From Candidatus Kapaibacterium sp. (lineage in GTDB: Bacteria; Bacteroidota; Ignavibacteria; Palsa-1295): DNA of 64,000 nt. Of this stretch, positions 24,624 through 34,425 are shown piece after piece. How positions within the stretch are numbered: the stretch's first letter is position 1; each line of letters starts with the position of its first letter. The stretch lies in NCBI GenBank assembly GCA_035632315.1, contig DASQGZ010000048.1:64740-128739 (forward strand). Direction: 5' to 3'. The translations under genes and the position numbers were made by a program. The notes under the pieces are model-generated. The model had not been told where the DNA came from. It did not search any database and saw only the letters and a list, made by a program, of their open reading frames with translations.

Positions 24624-24679
24624 ATAAAGGTCATTGAGTGAATTACAACAAAGATACTAAAGAATCTTGATGCGAGATA

Positions 24680-24745
24680 AAAAAAAACTCGAATGCAAGA
24701 GCGATAGCGGGGTAACATACAACCCCCTGACGATGACCTACTTTC
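24680..24745 (-). repeat. Decayed copy 3 of the 5S 3'-end plus terminator unit. It is a candidate distal boundary of the island.
   Basis: AAAAAAAACTCGAATGCAAGAGCGATAGCGGGGTAACATACAACCCCCTGACGATGACCTACTTTC is ~85% identical to 31068-31135 (terminator, flank and the last 25 nt of 5S). Confidence 0.55.
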
Positions 24746-25037
24746 AGATTCTTCGCGGAGTTTTCACTGAGCAGATGTGAATGTGCTCAGAATGACACCG
24801 CTGGTTGAGCTTTATAGATTAATATCACAAAAGTATATAAAAATTTGATAAATTACACTATTTATCAATATTTTATCAATAATACTTGCATTTTTGATTT
24901 TTATTTCGTATATTTGCAGCCAGAGATTAGCCAACATATCTGAAGCCGGCATCCTGCCCGCTCATCATTCAGCGTTTCCGGCACCTCCTTCATTCAAGTA
25001 CTGCGAAGTACATTTATTGCCAAGTACTTTTATCGTT

Positions 25038-26426
25038 ATGCAACAGACAACTCCTTCCGAGTTCGCGCATTCGCGGCTTGGGCTTACTTCATGGAAAAAA
25101 TTCGATGCCATTTTCGAAGCCGTCGAAGCGGGGCATCGGCGCATACTCGTTCGAAGCGCAAATGGCGTCGGCAAAACGACGGCGCTTGCGGCGCTTTGCA
25201 ACTGGAAGCTTTCGACTTCGGACGAATGCATCGTCCTCACCACAAGCTCCAGCGAAAAACAGCTTCGGCATAATCTTTGGGGTGAGATCAGGGCGCAGGC
25301 GATGAAAGCGAATCTGTATGAACCGAAAGATATCACTGATACGCGCATCAAGCTCGGCGAAAAAAGATTTATGCTTGCGGTTTCTCCTGCAAAGCCAGAA
25401 TCCGCGCAGGGGTTTCATGCTGCAAGCATGCTCATTGCCGTTGATGAAGCCACCGGGGTTCGCCGCGATATTCTTTCTTCGCTGATCGCAACGGCAAGCA
25501 GTGACGACGTGCAGATCGTGATGATCTATAATCCCATCACACCCGATAGTTTTGTTTATGAAGCAGAGCGATCGGGCGATTGGCACCTCGTCACGATCAG
25601 CGCGCTCGAACATCCGAACGTTGCAAAGAAAAAAACGAAGATCGCAGGCGCCGTTACCTTGAAAGCGACGGAGCATAACCTCAAACTCTGGAGCGAAGAA
25701 GCGGCGCCGGATGACGGCGAATCGTTCGAGCTGCACGGCAAATGGTGGCGCAAGACGCTCGAAGTCTGCCGCCGCATTCTCGGTCAGTGGTACGACGATT
25801 TTGGCGAAGGTATCATCTCGCGCGCGCTCGTGAATGCTGCAATCACCAATACAAATGCCGAGCGCGGAGCGAAGTCGATGGGTGTCGATCTTGCCGGCGG
25901 CGGCAAGGACGAGACCGTGATCGCCCGCTTCGATGGAGGCATCGGGTTGCCGCTGATCGTTATGCGCTCATCAAAAATTCTTGATATCGTTTCACGCATC
26001 GAAGAAGAATACCGCTCAGGATTTACGCGCATTGCCATCGATGAAACAGGTGTCATCGGCACGGCGTCCGAACTGCTTGCTGTGCGCGATATCAAGGTGC
26101 ATTCGGTTGCATTCTCGGCAAAGGCGATCGGCACATACGACAGCCGCGTCCGAACGCTCGGCAACAGGCGAATGGAAATGTATTACCATCTGCGCGAAGA
26201 ACTGCGCGCCGAAAAATTGCAATTAGTAGATGACGGAAAACTTGCCGAAGAACTTTGCACGATGAAGCTATCGACCAAAAGCACGAACGATAAATATTAC
26301 CTCGAACCGAAAGAGAATATCACCGCCCGCCTCGGCCACTCCCCCGATCGCGCCGATGCTACAGCGCTGGCACGATATGCGAATTTATTAGCGGAATATG
26401 ATGCCAAACCGCTCGTGATGTTTTGA
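25038..26426 (+). CDS. Phage terminase large subunit-like protein (ATPase plus RNase-H-like nuclease). The track ORF starts at 24894, but the likely start is MQQTTPSEF.
   Basis: Walker A NGVGKTT, Walker B VDEA and a C-terminal nuclease domain beginning GVDLAGGGKDETVIA and ending PDRADA. Upstream is a Bacteroidetes-type -7 element TATATTTG. Confidence 0.65.
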   Translation: MQQTTPSEFAHSRLGLTSWKKFDAIFEAVEAGHRRILVRSANGVGKTTALAALCNWKLSTSDECIVLTTSSSEKQLRHNLWGEIRAQAMKANLYEPKDITDTRIKLGEKRFMLAVSPAKPESAQGFHAASMLIAVDEATGVRRDILSSLIATASSDDVQIVMIYNPITPDSFVYEAERSGDWHLVTISALEHPNVAKKKTKIAGAVTLKATEHNLKLWSEEAAPDDGESFELHGKWWRKTLEVCRRILGQWYDDFGEGIISRALVNAAITNTNAERGAKSMGVDLAGGGKDETVIARFDGGIGLPLIVMRSSKILDIVSRIEEEYRSGFTRIAIDETGVIGTASELLAVRDIKVHSVAFSAKAIGTYDSRVRTLGNRRMEMYYHLREELRAEKLQLVDDGKLAEELCTMKLSTKSTNDKYYLEPKENITARLGHSPDRADATALARYANLLAEYDAKPLVMF

Positions 26427-26465
26427 GGGCATATCCGTTTGGGATTGAAAGTGGCTCCGAGAGGC

Positions 26466-26975
26466 TTAACGTTTCAATCTTGCCGAGAATTCAACCCCAA
26501 TTTCCGCAACAAAATCAGAATCATTGACCCAGCGAACATTCATATTTTCACAGACATTTGGAATTCTTACATTTCTTGCACTTGGGGCAGTTACTTTCCC
26601 CTCCTTGGTAACAACGCAAGCATTTTCTTTCATAGCGTGTGCAATTACCCAAGGGTCAGCAAGCGACCGATTCCTTCTATTATCCACGAGAAACTTATGC
26701 AGTGGATTCGTGTCGTATATTTTTTGCAAACATTTTGTAACTTCTTCATCTATTGGCTTTTTCTCTATGCTACTTTCTCGCAACCATTCTGCCAGGTCAT
26801 CATCCGTTTTCGTAATTTCTTCGAAGACATTTTCTGGTAGAAAAATTATCCCCGTGTGACCAATATCATTGAGAATACTCCAATAATCCGGGCAGAATTT
26901 TGGAGAATAATAAAATTGCCAAGCCTGAATAAGGACGTTGGCGTCCAAACAATATTTATCAGAGCGTGGGGGCAT
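26466..26975 (-). CDS. DUF4411-like PIN-fold protein, putative nuclease/toxin
   Basis: 169 aa with the N-terminus YCLDANVLIQAW. It lies 8 nt downstream of the ImmA/IrrE gene, so it is an operon partner. Confidence 0.55.
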   Translation of the reverse strand: MPPRSDKYCLDANVLIQAWQFYYSPKFCPDYWSILNDIGHTGIIFLPENVFEEITKTDDDLAEWLRESSIEKKPIDEEVTKCLQKIYDTNPLHKFLVDNRRNRSLADPWVIAHAMKENACVVTKEGKVTAPSARNVRIPNVCENMNVRWVNDSDFVAEIGVEFSARLKR

Positions 26976-26983
26976 TATTAAAA

Positions 26984-28168
26984 TTAATAAAGCTGTGCTA
27001 GCATTTTAGGGAATTTAGTGAGTGAAATATTTAATAAGCTGCTTGCCTGGGTCGGTTGAATAAATCCACCTTTGAAAGCATCAATAACAGTCTGTGTAAA
27101 TAATTTGCCATTTTTATTTGCAAGCAACAAATAATAGTTAGGCCCCCCTTCTTTCTCTTTAGAAGCAAGTTTCTTGGCAGTCTCCTTTTCAATGTATTTC
27201 TGAAACTCTTTGTCGAGTATATTCTTAATAACCCTGTATTTCTCTAAGGAAATTAAACCTAAATTGTACCCGCGTACTAACAACGCTAACGAGCTTACGC
27301 CAAAAATTTTTGAAGTCTTGTACAATTTTTCCTGAGAATGGAAAAGTGACGGATCCAACTTCTTGATTATCTGGTAAGGCATTAATGCCGATGCGGCTAC
27401 TTCATTGCAAAAATATTCAACTGGTTCAGGATGGCCTGCAGATTTTGCCTGCGGAATTATGTCATTAGAAATTCCGGATGCTGCAATCCAAACATGTGCA
27501 AGTTCATGTACAAGTGTAAATAACTGAGGAGTATCCCAATCATTGGAATTGATAAACACGAATGGTGCATGCTGGTCGGCAAGAGCAAAACCTTGCATCT
27601 CGTCGCTATCTAATAAGAGTTTCGAATGTATTAAGCTTGTTCTTGAAATAAATATCCCAGCCCGTTCAGCGCTTGCAATCCATTCACGATACGGATTCAC
27701 CGTTTTATAGTGAGCTGGATCAATTTGCAAGGTCTGTAGGATATCAGCAGCTACCTTTGCCGGGTCATCTGATGAAGAAAATTTTCCAACGAACGGAAGC
27801 TTCTCTTCTCCATTCTCTTGGTAAAATTCTCTCATCCATTCTTGTTTTTGACGAAGTTCTCTAATAATAAATTCGGATGCCGTCCCCAATGGCTTCGCAC
27901 TTTTTTTTCGAAAATCCTTTAATGGTTGAAAGTCTATTGGGGGCTCGGGAAGAAAGAAAATGGCAAAGGGTCTTTTATAGACTTTCGCTAATTTCTGTGC
28001 TTGTTTAATAGTTGGCAGGCCTGTACCGGCTTCCCATTCCAGTAACTTGTCAGTATCAATTGCCGCTTTTAAGGCAGCAATTTCAGGAGAAATTTTTGCA
28101 GTTTCTCGAGCCCACTTAAGGACGACGGGTGTAACGTTTGCTCGGTCTGCCATTAGAGATGAAAACAC
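26984..28168 (-). CDS. XRE-type HTH fused to an ImmA/IrrE family zinc metallopeptidase (DUF955 / M78)
   Basis: N-terminal HTH and the HELAHVW HEXXH motif. Confidence 0.8.
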   Translation of the reverse strand: MFSSLMADRANVTPVVLKWARETAKISPEIAALKAAIDTDKLLEWEAGTGLPTIKQAQKLAKVYKRPFAIFFLPEPPIDFQPLKDFRKKSAKPLGTASEFIIRELRQKQEWMREFYQENGEEKLPFVGKFSSSDDPAKVAADILQTLQIDPAHYKTVNPYREWIASAERAGIFISRTSLIHSKLLLDSDEMQGFALADQHAPFVFINSNDWDTPQLFTLVHELAHVWIAASGISNDIIPQAKSAGHPEPVEYFCNEVAASALMPYQIIKKLDPSLFHSQEKLYKTSKIFGVSSLALLVRGYNLGLISLEKYRVIKNILDKEFQKYIEKETAKKLASKEKEGGPNYYLLLANKNGKLFTQTVIDAFKGGFIQPTQASSLLNISLTKFPKMLAQLY

Positions 28169-28202
28169 ACAAGCACCTATAAAGTGGTTCCATAATGTAG
28201 AC

Positions 28203-28754
28203 TTATATTACTTCCCAGGCAGAAATTTTGGCCTGTTGATGGATAGGATGCTTTAAACCAGTACGTATTTGCTCTATACGATTCCCCAATTTAATTTTTA
28301 CTACCGATTTTGCAATTGCCTCAAAAGATTTTAAAAGAGGTTCAGTGCTAATAATAGCCGGACTATGTTCATAGCTAATCGTTAACACTGCTTTTCTTTC
28401 CTTACCCTTCCATTCCCGAAGTTTTAAGCAATCGCCTATCGCGCTTGAATTCCCCGGATATGGATGGAGGAGATTCACTGTCCAATTTTCAGCTTCTTTG
28501 CCGTTATCACCATACGGCCGTGCAATTTTAAACTCAATTGCCCAATAATCTTCTATCAGAAGATCTGGATTGCGTTTTGCCTTGCATCGCCCATCGAAAT
28601 GTTTAAGCTGATTCAGGTAGTATTCTATTCTCTTGACCAGTTGCGGCTCACCATACGGCCCGACTCCGGGATGATAGGCCTTAAACGGCGGATCGTTTTT
28701 ATCAATTTGAACCAGTGCATCTGAGATGTCTTTTACAACATTGTTCAGTGTCAT
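28203..28754 (-). CDS. Hypothetical protein with a PD-(D/E)xK-like nuclease motif
   Basis: RNPD-LLI-EDYWAIEFK fits D...(D/E)xK spacing. It lies 34 nt upstream of the ImmA/IrrE gene on the same strand. Confidence 0.35.
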   Translation of the reverse strand: MTLNNVVKDISDALVQIDKNDPPFKAYHPGVGPYGEPQLVKRIEYYLNQLKHFDGRCKAKRNPDLLIEDYWAIEFKIARPYGDNGKEAENWTVNLLHPYPGNSSAIGDCLKLREWKGKERKAVLTISYEHSPAIISTEPLLKSFEAIAKSVVKIKLGNRIEQIRTGLKHPIHQQAKISAWEVI

Positions 28755-28881
28755 AGTAGTAAGATATTTCTTGAAAGAAATAAAAGTTGCTTATGCAGAG
28801 TGATAGTCGTTTACCATACAATCCCTGTCAACGATCCGTTCGCCACCGATCACCTTTTGCGATCTTGGGAGAGCCGAATTT

Positions 28882-28903
28882 CTGGTGATTAAAAATCACC
28901 AGT
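28882..28903. promoter_or_regulatory. Perfect palindrome CTGGTGATT-aaaa-AATCACCAG ~130 nt upstream of the PD-(D/E)xK gene. It is a candidate operator.
   Basis: 9-bp arms. This is the only such site in the window. Confidence 0.3.
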
Positions 28904-28976
28904 TAATATATGTTGCTCCGAAGTGACGACATATAACTTATTGTTCACTATTTATCACATTTAACAATTTACACCT

Positions 28977-29147
28977 ATGAAAACCCAATACATGAATAAC
29001 GTCCCGTTTCTTCCGGGAGAATTAACCATTGTGACATCCGATCATGCCGAGCTGGCGATGCAGCATTCGGCGCGGCTTGCCGATTCGTTTCGCAGGGCGC
29101 GGCTGAACGGGAATAATAGGGGTGAAAACACTGTTTTATCAATGTGA
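28977..29147 (+). pseudogene. 5' fragment (49 codons plus RBS) of a paralog of gene 29696-30400. It forms direct repeat 1 (28975-29109).
   Basis: ~95% nucleotide identity to 29694-29828. The reading frame is open for 49 codons and then diverges and stops. Confidence 0.6.
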
Positions 29148-29320
29148 AAAAACTCACAATCGAAACCAATACCCACCTCAACGACCGCGATAAGCGGCGG
29201 GCTGCTATTGTGCATTCGGTCATTGCGTCGTCCCGGATCGAAGGGATATTGTTGACCAAAGCGCAGGAAGAAGCCATTGCCCGTCGGGTTGACAAGCGTC
29301 TTAAAAAAGACTCCGAATGA
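29144..29320 (+). CDS. VbhA/YhfG-like Fic-antitoxin remnant (58 codons, GTG start)
   Basis: Contains SSRIEGI, matching the (S/T)xxxE(G/N) Fic-inhibitory motif. It is convergent with, and overlaps, the Fic fragment. Confidence 0.4.
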   Translation: MKKLTIETNTHLNDRDKRRAAIVHSVIASSRIEGILLTKAQEEAIARRVDKRLKKDSE

Positions 29321-29600
29321 TCCGTTTCATCGGTTCATAGTTTTCATCGGCGGCCGCCTGGACCGCTGCAACATATTCGTCAAATCGTTCTTCTGTGATC
29401 TTCTCGAAGTGCAGTAATTCGAACCCCTGCTGAACAGCCATTGCATTTGCCAGAATTCGCATCACGCGACCGTTGCCTTCGCGGAACGGATGGATGAATA
29501 ACAACTCGGCATGGACGACGGCGATCGCATCTATCAATGCGTCACGACCCGGATACAGCAGCGGCAATTGTTTTAGAATATCCGTTTCGAATTTCTGCAT
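29301..29600 (-). pseudogene. N-terminally truncated Fic (filamentation induced by cAMP) domain protein
   Basis: HPFREGNGRVMR is the canonical Fic motif. At 99 aa it lacks the N-terminal helices. Confidence 0.6.
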
Positions 29601-29650
29601 TGTCAGCGGCAGGTACTTTCAGGTAAGAGCGTAATCAACCACCCCAACCC

Positions 29651-29680
29651 CGCCTTGAAAAGGCGAGACAGATTTTTTTT
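29651..29680 (+). terminator. Hairpin CGCCTT-gaaa-AGGCG followed by a T8 run
   Basis: Seen directly in the sequence. Confidence 0.45.
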
Positions 29681-29695
29681 AATCTATCAACATCT

Positions 29696-30400
29696 ATGAA
29701 AACCCAATATATGAATAACGTCCCGTTTCTTCCGGGAGAATTAACCATTGTGACATCCGATCATGCCGAGGCGACGATGCAGCACTCGGCGCGGCTTGCC
29801 GATTCGTTTCGCAAGGCGCGGCTGAACGTCCTTGTCATTAATTGCGGGATGAACGAGCGCCGCTTCCGCCAGCATTATCACGATACGTACGGCTCCGGTA
29901 TCGATACAACACCGACGGTGATCCTGAAGACATCGCTTTTAGGAAATGTCGCCGGCGACCGCGAAGGGATCGATCAGATCGTGCGCGAAGCGAAGATCGG
30001 CGTCGTGATCCTTGCCGGCTGGGAATTTGCATCGGGAACGCGCCGCCGCCGCAACAAATTATTCTTTTACCTTCGCGAGCTCATGGCCGAACGCGATATT
30101 GCCGTCATCGTGTATTCGCAAACGATGAATAATCCTGTTGCCGGAAAAATGGGCGCACTCGGAAAGCTTGCCGCCGCGGCAATGGAAGTGGTGAAGATCG
30201 ATTCGTCGAAAGTGCTGGAAGCGGTCGTGAAAAAGCCGCCCGTGATCGCGTGGGAATCGGCAGATGAGATGCATACCATTGAACAGGGGGTACAGCGATT
30301 AGTCAGGAATATCAATGAGTTAGCAGACCATCAGTGCACATCGGATGAAGATGCACGGCAAATAGAGAATGACGATGGAGACTACGGCGTGGCGGTGTGA
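29696..30400 (+). CDS. Hypothetical protein. The beta-strand pattern suggests a RecA-like fold without a Walker A motif.
   Basis: 234 aa. Its first 49 codons are duplicated upstream at 28977. Confidence 0.35.
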   Translation: MKTQYMNNVPFLPGELTIVTSDHAEATMQHSARLADSFRKARLNVLVINCGMNERRFRQHYHDTYGSGIDTTPTVILKTSLLGNVAGDREGIDQIVREAKIGVVILAGWEFASGTRRRRNKLFFYLRELMAERDIAVIVYSQTMNNPVAGKMGALGKLAAAAMEVVKIDSSKVLEAVVKKPPVIAWESADEMHTIEQGVQRLVRNINELADHQCTSDEDARQIENDDGDYGVAV

Positions 30401-30442
30401 AAAAGCCGATGTACGAATTTCCGTTGCCGAAGGGCCAGGGAT

Positions 30443-31069
30443 ATGTATATTTGCAAGAAGGATATAATTATGATACTACCTAAACTGTTACTTTCACTGA
30501 TCATCTCGGTTTCTATTTATAGTTTTTTCCCTCAGGGCGACGATCTGAATCTCGGATTTGAGCGAGTTGGTTACAAAGCCAAACCCATTGGCTGGTATGC
30601 CGGAGGAGGAGGAGGAAAGAAAGATGACCTTGACGGTTATCTCGGAGAGTGCGATTCGACGACAGTTCACTCGGGAAAATATTCTTTGCACTTGAAATAT
30701 CTCAAAGGTGACGGCTTCGGAGTCGGAACGAAAACACTCGACATCGCCCCACTCAGAGGCAAAACCATTCGCTTCAGCGGCTGGATCAAAACCCACAACG
30801 TCGGCGGGAAGAAAGATCACAATTTCGACGGGTACGCAGGTTTGTGGTGGAGAGTAGATGGGCCGGATCACAAGACGTTAGCCTTCAATAATATGCAAGA
30901 TAGCTTGGTCAACGGTACCCGTGATTGGCAGAGATATTCATTTGAATTACCGGTGGGAGAAACCGCTACGAATATAGATTTCGGAGTTCAAATGGCAGGG
31001 AAAGGCGAAGCATGGTTCGATGATCTGTCCATCGATACCAACGGGGTCCATTATTTAGGTTGGAAATAA
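30443..31069 (+). CDS. Hypothetical secreted protein
   Basis: Signal peptide and a G-rich linker. No catalytic motifs. Confidence 0.4.
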   Translation: MYICKKDIIMILPKLLLSLIISVSIYSFFPQGDDLNLGFERVGYKAKPIGWYAGGGGGKKDDLDGYLGECDSTTVHSGKYSLHLKYLKGDGFGVGTKTLDIAPLRGKTIRFSGWIKTHNVGGKKDHNFDGYAGLWWRVDGPDHKTLAFNNMQDSLVNGTRDWQRYSFELPVGETATNIDFGVQMAGKGEAWFDDLSIDTNGVHYLGWK

Positions 31070-31074
31070 AAAAA

Positions 31075-31106
31075 CCCTCGAACGCAAGAGCGATCGAGGG
31101 TTAACA
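31075..31106 (-). terminator. rRNA operon terminator (CCCTCGA...TCGAGGG hairpin followed by U-run on the minus strand)
   Basis: Sits immediately 3' of the 5S gene. Confidence 0.5.
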
Positions 31107-31111
31107 TACAA

Positions 31112-31228
31112 CCCCTGGCGACGACCTACTTTCCCAAGCCTGACTGGCTAAGTATCATCGGCTTACAAGGGCTTAACTGCTCTGTTCGGAATGGGAAGAG
31201 GTGTAGCCCCTTGGATATAGTCGCCAAA
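31112..31228 (-). rRNA. rrf: 5S ribosomal RNA
   Basis: Minus-strand sequence CCATTCCGAACAGAG...GTTAAGC...GGGAAAGTAGGTCGTCGCCAGGGG has the canonical 5S helices. Confidence 0.85.

Positions 31229-31439: not shown

Positions 31440-34425
<2,986 letters not shown>

Follow-up and report, generated by a model that had tools for sequence, protein, structure and literature searches.

A predicted toxin-antitoxin pair of the HTH-ImmA/DUF4411 type and an adjacent restriction-endonuclease-like gene in an island flanked by 5S rRNA-derived repeats on a Candidatus Kapabacteria contig

The window analysed here, a stretch of 64,000 nucleotides of a 128,911-nt Candidatus Kapabacteria contig, contains three co-directional minus-strand open reading frames at positions 26466-28754, hereafter g1, g2 and g3 in their 5' to 3' order on that strand (Table 1). 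As called, the reading frames are separated by 34 nt (g1-g2) and 8 nt (g2-g3), in agreement with a preliminary description of the locus, and g2 runs from a GTG at 28168 (26984-28168, 394 aa). Homologous loci share ATGGCAGAC at the g2 start codon ATG 28153 (protein start MADRAN...), and their g2 proteins are 385-392 aa long. From this comparison, the g2 start is most likely ATG 28153 rather than GTG 28168, giving a protein of ~389 aa, and the g1-g2 gap is thus 49 nt.

Table 1 Features of the locus and their coordinates in the window.
Feature	Position	Strand	Remarks
Left repeat copy: decayed 5S rRNA 3' end and downstream hairpin	24674-24747		aligns locally to the right copy with a score of 92
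g3: DUF4411 PIN-like protein, predicted nuclease toxin	26466-26975	-	169 aa
g2: XRE-type HTH and ImmA/IrrE-type (Peptidase_M78, COG2856/DUF955) HEXXH metalloprotease, predicted antitoxin/regulator	26984-28153	-	
Conserved g2-g3 leader (GGAACCACTTTATAGGTGC...)	28154-28190	-	from the alignment with loci L081 and L088
g1: restriction-endonuclease-like protein (PD-(D/E)xK-type) of a widespread, unannotated family	28203-28754	-	183 aa
Perfect 9-bp inverted repeat, CTGGTGATT-n3-AATCACCAG	28882-28902		arms 28882-28890 and 28894-28902
Right repeat copy: last ~22 nt of the intact 5S rRNA gene and downstream hairpin	31063-31135		
Intact 5S rRNA gene	31113-31228	-	

The three genes are located in a 6.4-kb mosaic island beside the 3' end of a 5S rRNA gene, and the island is flanked by direct repeats of ~72 bp that derive from this 3' end, an unusual apparent integration site. 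The island also contains a terminase-like gene. A possible third, degenerate copy of the repeat was detected at 28793-28834 (score 31, compared with a shuffle mean of 21.9, sd of 2.1 and maximum of 31). The compositions of g1, g2 and g3 are near-identical (GC 0.40-0.41, GC3 0.35-0.36) and unlike those of the other island genes, which is compatible with the three genes having arrived or resided together.

The protein encoded by g2 had been described as an XRE-type HTH fused to an ImmA/IrrE-type protease, and this assignment was upheld. Residues 194-299 matched Peptidase_M78 (E = 3.4e-13; 49.9 bits, curated cut-off 22), with the motif VHELAHVW (HELAH) inside the match, and the match to HTH_3 was weak (E = 0.012, under the cut-off). 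The entire protein matched phrog_2439, a "transcriptional regulator" (1.5e-54), and 16 PADLOC models of RmrA, i.e., PDLC03949 (2.2e-14 over residues 13-328) and 15 others. The HEXXH motif was retained in 69/69 full-length g2 homologues. The predicted g3 product, likewise correctly described as a DUF4411 PIN-like protein, is a single-domain protein that matched the full Pfam DUF4411 model (E = 7e-38; 130.4 bits, cut-off 23.5; model positions 1-159 of 159) and phrog_11126 (5e-43); its match to canonical PIN was weak (E = 1.3e-3, under the Pfam cut-off). Residues D11, E53, D98, D107 and D152 showed no variation among 35 homologues, of which the window protein is one, and probably represent the catalytic positions of the PIN-like domain. 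Neither g3 nor g1 matched a PADLOC model at E ≤ 0.1, and g3 thus has no RmrT match. These conservation patterns indicate that selection acts on the predicted catalytic motifs of both g2 (HEXXH) and g3 (acidic residues).

The pairing of g2 and g3 is a recurrent one, as the preliminary description had held. A g2 homologue was encoded directly upstream of the DUF4411 gene in 83 of 85 loci, overlapping it by 4 nt in 68, and the two loci lacking such a homologue are both cut by contig ends. The pair was found standing alone in four further contexts, and pairs of this type are present on 44 plasmids; on a Leptospira plasmid, the two genes are annotated as "XRE family transcriptional regulator" and "DUF4411 family protein". 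They are rare in sequenced phages (two remote matches), and one locus was found in IMG/VR. No third gene was conserved on either flank of the pair, the biggest flank cluster being three near-identical contigs, and no separate XRE repressor gene was conserved beside it, the HTH being fused to the protease. The closest relative of the pair in the window (79% identity; locus L081) sits in another context and lacks g1.

A different picture was obtained for g1, which contains KRNPDLLIEDYWAIEFK and belongs to a large family of ~500 representatives, whose members are 55-63% identical across bacterial phyla and some archaeal metagenome-assembled genomes (MAGs). No match to the family was found in Pfam, NCBIfam, PHROGs or PADLOC, even when 51 divergent members were included; sequence and profile searches against the PDB returned noise only, and tblastn detected nothing in phages. 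An alignment of 41 homologues shows no variation at E36, D64, E74 or K76, and among 51 divergent members (down to 28-35% identity) each of these residues is still conserved to at least 90%. The AF2 model (pLDDT 89.4, pTM 0.88) has an αβββαβ core formed by a helix at 33-48 (with E36), strands at 57-59, 65-67 (with D64 at the start) and 71-78 (with E74 and K76), a helix at 105-113 and a strand at 120-129. Given the conserved E...D...ExK signature and the modelled core, the earlier proposal that g1 encodes a PD-(D/E)xK nuclease is plausible. Restriction-endonuclease ancestry is likely, because one divergent member of the family sits in a classic arrangement with Vsr and m5C methylase genes; in this case (P0320), the g1-like gene is 8 nt downstream of a C5 methylase gene, with a divergently oriented Vsr gene.

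In other genomes, genes of the g1 family are almost always solitary among unrelated genes, and the closest relatives of g1 (61-62% identity) sit in other contexts. The genes directly flanking the family members on either side in 77 loci included no conserved partner, and no conserved flanking DNA motif was detected around the copies by k-mer enrichment. The neighbours that could be named by Pfam are mostly metabolic or housekeeping genes (RNR, GAPDH, ThiC, GuaA and PEP-utilising enzymes), with each family found in few loci. Some copies sit just past the terminator hairpin of the upstream gene.

The preliminary description had combined g1, g2 and g3 into a candidate novel three-gene module and had held that the absence of such co-occurrence in other genomes would refute it. 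No relative of g2 or g3 was detected within 6 kb of a g1-family gene in any of 79 loci, and no g1 relative was detected at any of 85 DUF4411 loci; 52 of the 83 loci carrying the pair have at least 650 nt upstream of g2, i.e., room for g1. Because the three genes do not co-occur in other genomes, the three-gene system fails by its own standard. On these comparisons, the placement of g1 49 nt upstream of g2 is peculiar to this Candidatus Kapabacteria contig, and the trio is a one-off adjacency. We conclude, with a probability of about three in four, that g2 and g3 together form the functional unit, a two-gene module, and that g1 is an independent gene and not a conserved part of it.

Alignment with loci L081 and L088 revealed where this module begins: other g2-g3 loci become similar to the window sequence 12 nt past the g1 stop codon, which marks the module boundary, and the shared part includes the conserved leader directly upstream of g2. 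In other g2-g3 subgroups, a conserved proximal box of their own precedes the ATG by ~8-15 nt and often resembles the Bacteroidota -7 motif TAnnTTTG. A promoter or operator belonging to the module itself probably lies in the leader. A scan for sigma-70 promoters and terminators returned counts at or below the shuffle expectation and was uninformative, this group of organisms probably using other promoter rules. The stretch between g1 and g2 showed no terminator-like site, and read-through from g1 into g2-g3 is therefore possible.

The inverted repeat upstream of g1 had been put forward as an operator for the HTH. Its perfect 9-bp arms are as described, the spacer being 3 nt rather than 4 nt and the end at 28902 rather than 28903. 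It is unlikely to have arisen by chance, the pattern (with up to three mismatches) being expected 0.02 times per window in shuffles, a figure calculated post hoc. The repeat precedes the g1 ATG by 128 nt, so that g1 lies between it and the g2 start, which is ~730 nt away. We found no further copies in the window or in 165 related loci, and no comparable palindrome upstream of 62 g2 homologues; the region had no Rfam match and an unremarkable RNA fold (z = -1.7). Given its distance from g2, the lack of further copies, the lack of anything conserved upstream of g2 homologues and the presence of a separate leader at g2, we rejected the repeat as a supported operator.

Several readings compete with an independent two-gene module, the most serious of which concerns g1 and is possible, if doubtful. 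It assigns g1 to a restriction-modification system, as the nuclease, and supposes that the matching methyltransferase is encoded elsewhere or has been lost; the locus would then be no single system but a small "defence islet" in which an R-like nuclease, a Rosmer-like TA and Fic/anti-Fic remnants are independent of one another. The Vsr, m5C methylase and g1-like arrangement of P0320 fits this reading, as does locus L006, whose g1 homologue (59% identity) has a related C5 methylase, a Vsr and an MTaX1 protein encoded in its vicinity, and locus L059, with an N6_N4 methylase two genes off; an adjacent methylase is thus present for the divergent relative in locus L177, and possibly in L006 and L059. 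In the window itself, a Fic fragment and an anti-Fic-like ORF adjoin the three genes. However, neither phmmer (C5 and N4/N6 queries) nor a motif search, which alone covered other classes such as Dam/D12, detected a DNA methylase in the 64-kb window, and none was found within 6 kb of 77 of the 79 close g1 homologues, with their largely metabolic and housekeeping neighbours. The identity of the family across phyla is also unusually high for restriction enzymes, suggesting a constrained and possibly domesticated function. A domesticated repair or processing nuclease would be moderately interesting if true, and is a question separate from the three-gene claim. We consider it very unlikely that g1 was captured before the TA module in this lineage and now forms a transcriptional and functional unit with it, e.g., as a DNA nuclease under the g2 repressor/protease, which would make a new nuclease, ImmA and PIN system. 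The shared strand, the 49-nt gap with no terminator-like site, the almost equal GC and GC3 that set the three genes apart from their island neighbours, and the improbability of the palindrome by chance all favour such a coupling, and g1-family genes elsewhere adjoin other TA pairs (L170) and occur in the methylase/Vsr island of L006. Against this, co-occurrence was zero in both sets of loci, even the closest g2-g3 relative lacks g1, the pair has its own conserved leader just past the g1 stop, the palindrome is near no g2 homologue, and a single occurrence is indistinguishable from chance adjacency in a mosaic island. Still less probable is the specific form in which g1 was recruited before the HTH-ImmA/DUF4411 genes as part of a tricistronic unit, with one sensor-repressor-protease controlling DNA-acting and RNA-acting nucleases from the palindrome as operator; if true, Rosmer-like systems would have a three-gene form not described before, known so far from this one locus.

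The nature of the pair itself can also be read differently. As a regulatory switch of a mobile element, g2 would act like ImmR/ImmA of ICEBs1 or IrrE/DdrO, i.e., sense damage and control the genes of the element as a repressor-protease, and g3 would be a regulated non-toxic nuclease, with a role in, e.g., element replication or RNA processing. ImmA and IrrE are cited as precedents in PMC2701414 and PMC5499597, and Makarova 2009 (PMC2701414) left open that Xre-COG2856 is a generic regulator; COG2856 proteins alone were non-toxic in S. pneumoniae (PMC4257102), and the pair sits in an island with a terminase-like gene and on 44 plasmids. We nevertheless regard a switch as unlikely. The pair occurs as an isolated unit on chromosomes, where the surrounding genes are unrelated and include no conserved element genes, behaviour suggesting a selfish TA-type module and not the regulator of a particular element. 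It is also rare in sequenced phages and in IMG/VR, and the same antitoxin architecture has been validated as RosmerTA, of which an rmrA deletion was unobtainable (10.1101/2022.05.11.491447).

For the preferred two-gene TA module, the domain assignments suggest how it might work. The PIN-like (DUF4411) nuclease g3 would most likely be a toxin that arrests growth by cutting RNA, and g2 would most likely restrain it by binding the toxin and/or by acting as repressor of the operon at a site within the short conserved leader. The toxin may then be released through the protease domain of g2 on a trigger such as phage infection or DNA damage. The toxicity of g3 and its neutralisation by g2 are extrapolated; no experiment on any DUF4411 protein, toxicity assays included, was found in the literature searched. 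Data on the toxicity, neutralisation or phage defence of any DUF4411 member would fill a long-standing gap, for which this locus offers no special advantage.

With the type II restriction endonucleases of m5C methylase/Vsr systems, g1 shares the E...(P/C)D...ExK signature and the αβββαβ core; it differs from them in that g1 and 77 of its 79 close homologues have no nearby methylase, in that its family is far more conserved than typical restriction enzymes, and in lacking sequence matches in Pfam, NCBIfam and the PDB. The ImmR/ImmA (ICEBs1) and IrrE(PprI)/DdrO (Deinococcus) systems have in common with g2 an HEXXH M78 metalloprotease associated with an XRE-type HTH, and in both the protease inactivates the repressor on damage or other signals. 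Protease and repressor are separate proteins there and control element or repair genes, whereas g2 combines HTH and protease in one protein, with a PIN-like nuclease as its sole conserved partner. VapBC resembles g2-g3 in that the gene for a PIN-fold nuclease follows that of a DNA-binding partner, the two forming a tightly coupled bicistron; however, VapBC antitoxins are small RHH, AbrB or Phd proteins, g2 is ~390 aa with a protease domain, and DUF4411 is only distantly related to canonical PIN.

The pair is closest to predicted or validated systems with the same kind of antitoxin. In RosmerTA, which protects against phage and whose rmrA-deleted form could not be transformed (Millman et al. 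2022 preprint, 10.1101/2022.05.11.491447), an HTH and Zn-peptidase antitoxin likewise forms a two-gene operon, and g2 matches the RmrA models; g3 matches no PADLOC RmrT model, the antitoxin gene comes first here, and RmrT of phage Kita depolarises the membrane (PMC10440598) and is not a PIN nuclease, unlike the predicted g3. ImmA/Rosmer antitoxin nodes paired with PIN-like toxins were reported by Ernits 2023 (PMC10440598), systems of COG2856-Xre with PIN or RelE were predicted by Makarova 2009 (PMC2701414), and Matelska 2017 (PMC5499597) considered DUF4411.1 proteins downstream of fused DUF955-HTH genes to be potential toxins of three-component (HTH, protease and nuclease) TA systems. The g2-g3 pairing is therefore already described as a predicted TA architecture (HTH-COG2856/DUF955 with DUF4411) and is not new. 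The window pair has the architecture and order of the Xre-HTH/COG2856 and DUF4411.1 class, with HTH and M78 fused in one gene and a single-domain DUF4411 gene directly after it, the HEXXH and acidic PIN-type residues kept, and a scattered mobile distribution that includes plasmids. There is no substantive difference from this class, which is itself predicted only, and g2-g3 is one more member of the widespread HTH-ImmA/DUF4411 class predicted in 2009 and 2017.

ORF calling returned three genes in the same direction on the minus strand, as in the preliminary description: g1 (nuclease-like protein), g2 (HTH-protease) and g3 (DUF4411 protein). In Pfam, g2 matched Peptidase_M78 (IrrE N-terminal-like; E=3.4e-13) and weakly HTH_3 (E=0.012), in agreement with the proposed HTH and ImmA/IrrE-type protease, and g3 matched DUF4411 over its full length (E=7e-38) and PIN weakly, in agreement with a DUF4411 PIN-like protein. 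g1 had no Pfam family and is 100% identical to a protein labelled 'hypothetical protein' in a Candidatus Kapabacteria contig record. Judging from related sequences, the true start of g2 is almost certainly the ATG at 28153 (MADRAN…) and not the GTG at 28168; ATGGCAGAC is shared at this position by homologous loci, where the proteins encoded from that start are about 385–392 aa long. The gap between g1 and g2 is therefore 49 nt, not the 34 nt first stated. With minor corrections to the g2 start, this gap and the spacer of the upstream palindrome, the original observation as a whole (genes, motifs and palindrome) was confirmed.

Features of the g1–g3 region and its surroundings (positions in the window)
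Feature	Position	Strand	Remark
Direct repeat, left copy	24674-24747		~72 bp, ~87% identity between copies
Enclosed segment (island)	24748-31062		6.4 kb
Terminase-large-subunit-like gene	24894-26426	plus	phrog_2 1e-24, weak Terminase_6N
g3	26466-26975	minus	169 aa ORF
g2	26984-28168	minus	ORF, 394 aa counted from GTG
g1	28203-28754	minus	183 aa ORF
Palindrome arms	28882-28890, 28894-28902		9 bp each
150-bp repeat, upstream copy	28960-29109		92% identity between copies
Truncated ORF	28977-29147		56 aa, from upstream copy of 150-bp repeat
Anti-Fic-like ORF	29144-29320	plus	58 aa, SRIEG motif
Fic/DOC C-terminal fragment	29301-29600	minus	99 aa, HPFREGNGR; PADLOC PDC-S04 positions 104-200 of 205
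150-bp repeat, second copy	29679-29828
234-aa gene	29696-30400
208-aa ORF	within island
Direct repeat, right copy	31063-31135		overlaps end of 5S rRNA gene
5S rRNA	31113-31228	minus	Rfam
23S rRNA	31490-34416	minus	Rfam

The pairing of g2 with g3 recurs, as had been expected. We collected 85 loci with DUF4411 relatives (4 from closest-homologue look-ups, 80 from metagenomes and 1 from IMG/VR), and in 83 of them a g2 homologue was directly upstream of the DUF4411 gene on the same strand; the two loci without one were both interrupted by a contig end. The paired genes overlapped by 4 nt in 68 of the 81 pairs with a scorable gap. This conserved architecture was accompanied by conserved catalytic motifs, i.e., HEXXH was kept in all full-length g2 homologues (69/69), and the acidic residues D11, E53, D98, D107 and D152 of g3 were invariant (n = 35 homologues). 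When every ORF lying up to 2 kb from the pair on both sides was clustered, no conserved third gene emerged, and the largest flank-ORF cluster came from three near-identical contigs only. The pair is rare among sequenced phages and is also plasmid-borne; on a Leptospira interrogans plasmid its genes are labelled 'XRE family transcriptional regulator' and 'DUF4411 family protein'. These loci identify g2–g3 as a self-contained module.

By analogy with HTH-protease/PIN families, g3 would act as a toxin of the PIN-like RNase type and g2 both as its antitoxin and as an autorepressor, with the metalloprotease domain of g2 possibly coupling toxin release to a trigger, e.g., phage infection or DNA damage. 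The data show the architecture, its conservation and the catalytic motifs, from which toxicity, neutralisation, trigger and operator position are inferred. The main alternative, in which g2–g3 would serve a mobile element as a regulatory switch of the ImmR/ImmA kind, is disfavoured, as the pair stands by itself with unrelated genes around it.

The preliminary description had included g1 in a novel three-gene conflict module, and this proposal is contradicted by the absence of the trio elsewhere, a result that the preliminary description had itself named as refuting. A pattern scan across genomes, one for each species, gave 143 g1 relatives, and 80 loci with 6-kb flanks were retained; a g2 or g3 relative was near g1 homologues in 0/79 scorable loci, and a g1 relative was detected in 0/85 pair loci, although room for g1 (at least 650 nt upstream of g2) was available in 52 of the 83 that carried the pair. 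In the nearest g2–g3 locus (L081; 79% identity for g3) the place upstream of the pair is taken by a 94-aa ORF and a DUF2283 gene, and the nearest g1 relatives (61–62% identity) adjoin a peptidase M20 gene, SurA, or other TA pairs in an array. Membership of g1 in the g2–g3 module is thus not supported by the gene neighborhoods, and it is very improbable that the three genes form a functional trio specific to this lineage. The best remaining argument for a common history in this lineage is their shared composition (GC 0.40–0.41, GC3 0.35–0.36; the terminase-like, Fic and 234-aa genes of the same island have a GC3 of 0.54–0.63), which is a weak argument because several host genes have similar values.

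The region before g2 suggests that the pair may have its own promoter with a very short leader or a leaderless transcript. When the sequence upstream of g2 was aligned with L081 and a second related locus, L088, similarity began at GGAACC (~28190), 12 nt beyond the stop codon of g1, and continued into the ATG. Other g2 subgroups have their own conserved sequence close to the start, and by our reading many modules (loci L097–L164) have a TAnnTTTG-like box, e.g., TGTATTTTTGA, ~8–15 nt before the ATG of the g2 homologue; this box would correspond to the Bacteroidota −7 promoter motif.

The palindrome, proposed earlier as the operator of the g2 HTH, does have perfect 9-bp arms and is rare by chance (0.02 matches expected per window), with a spacer of 3 nt rather than 4. 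The operator proposal is unsupported because no palindrome of at least 8 bp recurred upstream of g2 homologues (n = 62), CTGGTGATT was absent from all 165 related loci searched, and the palindrome is ~730 nt from the g2 start, with g1 in between. Rfam and folding were uninformative for this region. Between the palindrome and the g1 start codon, 28793–28834 may be a further copy, the third and degenerate, of the ~72-bp island repeat (~74% identity over 38 nt); it scored 31 in the alignment, which lies at the limit of the shuffles (mean 21.9, s.d. 2.1, maximum 31 of 200).

We conclude that g1 is a predicted restriction-endonuclease-like protein of an undescribed and mostly solitary family, because of its conserved residues, its AlphaFold core, and the methylase and Vsr neighbors of some members. 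The family has >1000 clusters at 90% identity, with members 55–63% identical to g1, and 515 representatives were recovered by an exhaustive profile search; its hosts include Acidobacteriota, Chloroflexota, Planctomycetota, Actinomycetota and archaeal MAGs. No member matched Pfam, NCBIfam, PHROGs, PADLOC or PDB sequences. Residues E36, D64, E74 and K76 are invariant in close homologues and at least 90% conserved among members only 28–35% identical. In the AlphaFold model, which is of high confidence (pLDDT 89, pTM 0.88), these residues are on the expected elements of an αβββαβ order, supporting the predicted PD-(D/E)xK fold.

In L177 (356–2488) the order is Vsr, a C5 DNA methylase oriented divergently from it and, 8 nt further downstream, a divergent member of the g1 family (P0320), the classic arrangement of type II R-M. 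A related C5 methylase is found in L006 (2457–6564), along with MTaX1 ('methylase-associated X1'), Vsr, a 158-aa membrane protein and a 59%-identical g1 homologue. An N6_N4 methylase is two genes upstream of the g1 homologue in the archaeal L059 (4318–6549), and a Vsr-like ORF is just downstream of the family member in L178. No DNA methylase was detected within 6 kb of g1 homologues in the other 77 loci, or in the 64-kb window; neighbors with Pfam names were unrelated metabolic or housekeeping genes, e.g., class II RNR, GAPDH, ThiC, GuaA and PEP-utilising enzymes. The methylase and Vsr neighbors point to a restriction-endonuclease origin of an otherwise solitary family.

In L005, L008, L013, L016, L021, L024 and L075, a GC-rich hairpin with a T-run precedes the g1 homologue by ~20–40 nt, which we read as the terminator of an upstream co-directional gene, e.g., one annotated as class II ribonucleotide reductase, and which leaves little promoter space for the homologue; the upstream neighbor was co-directional in 33 of 40 (scorable subset). 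In L170 (927–5687), a 61%-identical homologue is within a same-strand array of TA pairs (Gp49/HTH, RelE/MqsA, DUF433/DUF5615 and Unstab_antitox/ParE) that resembles a TA island or cassette array. On a haloarchaeal plasmid (L175; Halomarina sp. BND7, NZ_CP100458.1, 1616–3579), the gene for a distant g1-like protein labelled 'transcriptional regulator' (25% identity, E=3e-7) shares 4 nt with the end of a gene of the GIY-YIG nuclease family (456 aa).

The segment with g1–g3 has the appearance of an element that inserted at the 5S rRNA 3' end. The 5S rRNA gene is intact, and its final ~22 nt together with the hairpin downstream of it make up the right direct repeat; the genes outside the repeats are ordinary chromosomal genes. 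No integrase is present in the island. The 64-kb window contains no 16S rRNA or tRNA gene, and the 16S gene appears unlinked from the 23S–5S pair. The composition of the island is mosaic (GC3 0.35–0.63). Its terminase-like gene (GC 0.52, richer than its neighbors) stands alone, with other recognisable phage structural genes not nearby. The Fic fragment converges on and overlaps the 58-aa ORF, whose SRIEG motif resembles the inhibitory (S/T)xxxE(G/N) helix of VbhA-type Fic antitoxins, and together they look like a disrupted Fic toxin-antitoxin remnant. Both are bracketed by the copies of the 150-bp direct repeat, a duplication of the start of the 234-aa gene (the first ~45 codons and the region upstream).

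Fusions of COG2856 and Xre that share operons with PIN or RelE toxins were previously reported, and a three-component TAS was proposed (Makarova et al. 2009, PMC2701414). Matelska et al. (2017, PMC5499597) placed DUF4411.1 genes downstream of fused DUF955-HTH genes and counted them among the potential toxins of three-component TA systems. The Zn-peptidase-antitoxin configuration was later named RosmerTA, with Matelska cited (Millman et al. 2022, 10.1101/2022.05.11.491447), and PIN-like toxins were paired with ImmA/Rosmer antitoxin nodes (Ernits et al. 2023, PMC10440598). We found no experimental study of any DUF4411 protein in the literature searched, where five papers mention the domain. In PADLOC, g2 matched RmrA models (2e-14), whereas g3 matched no RmrT model and g1 matched none at all. 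By analogy, the locus would work like a Rosmer-type system, and it is outside formal two-HMM membership because only g2 has its match. We conclude that g2–g3 adds one member to a two-gene class that is already described, though as a prediction, and that the restriction-endonuclease-like gene next to it in the small mosaic island is unannotated and unrelated to the pair.
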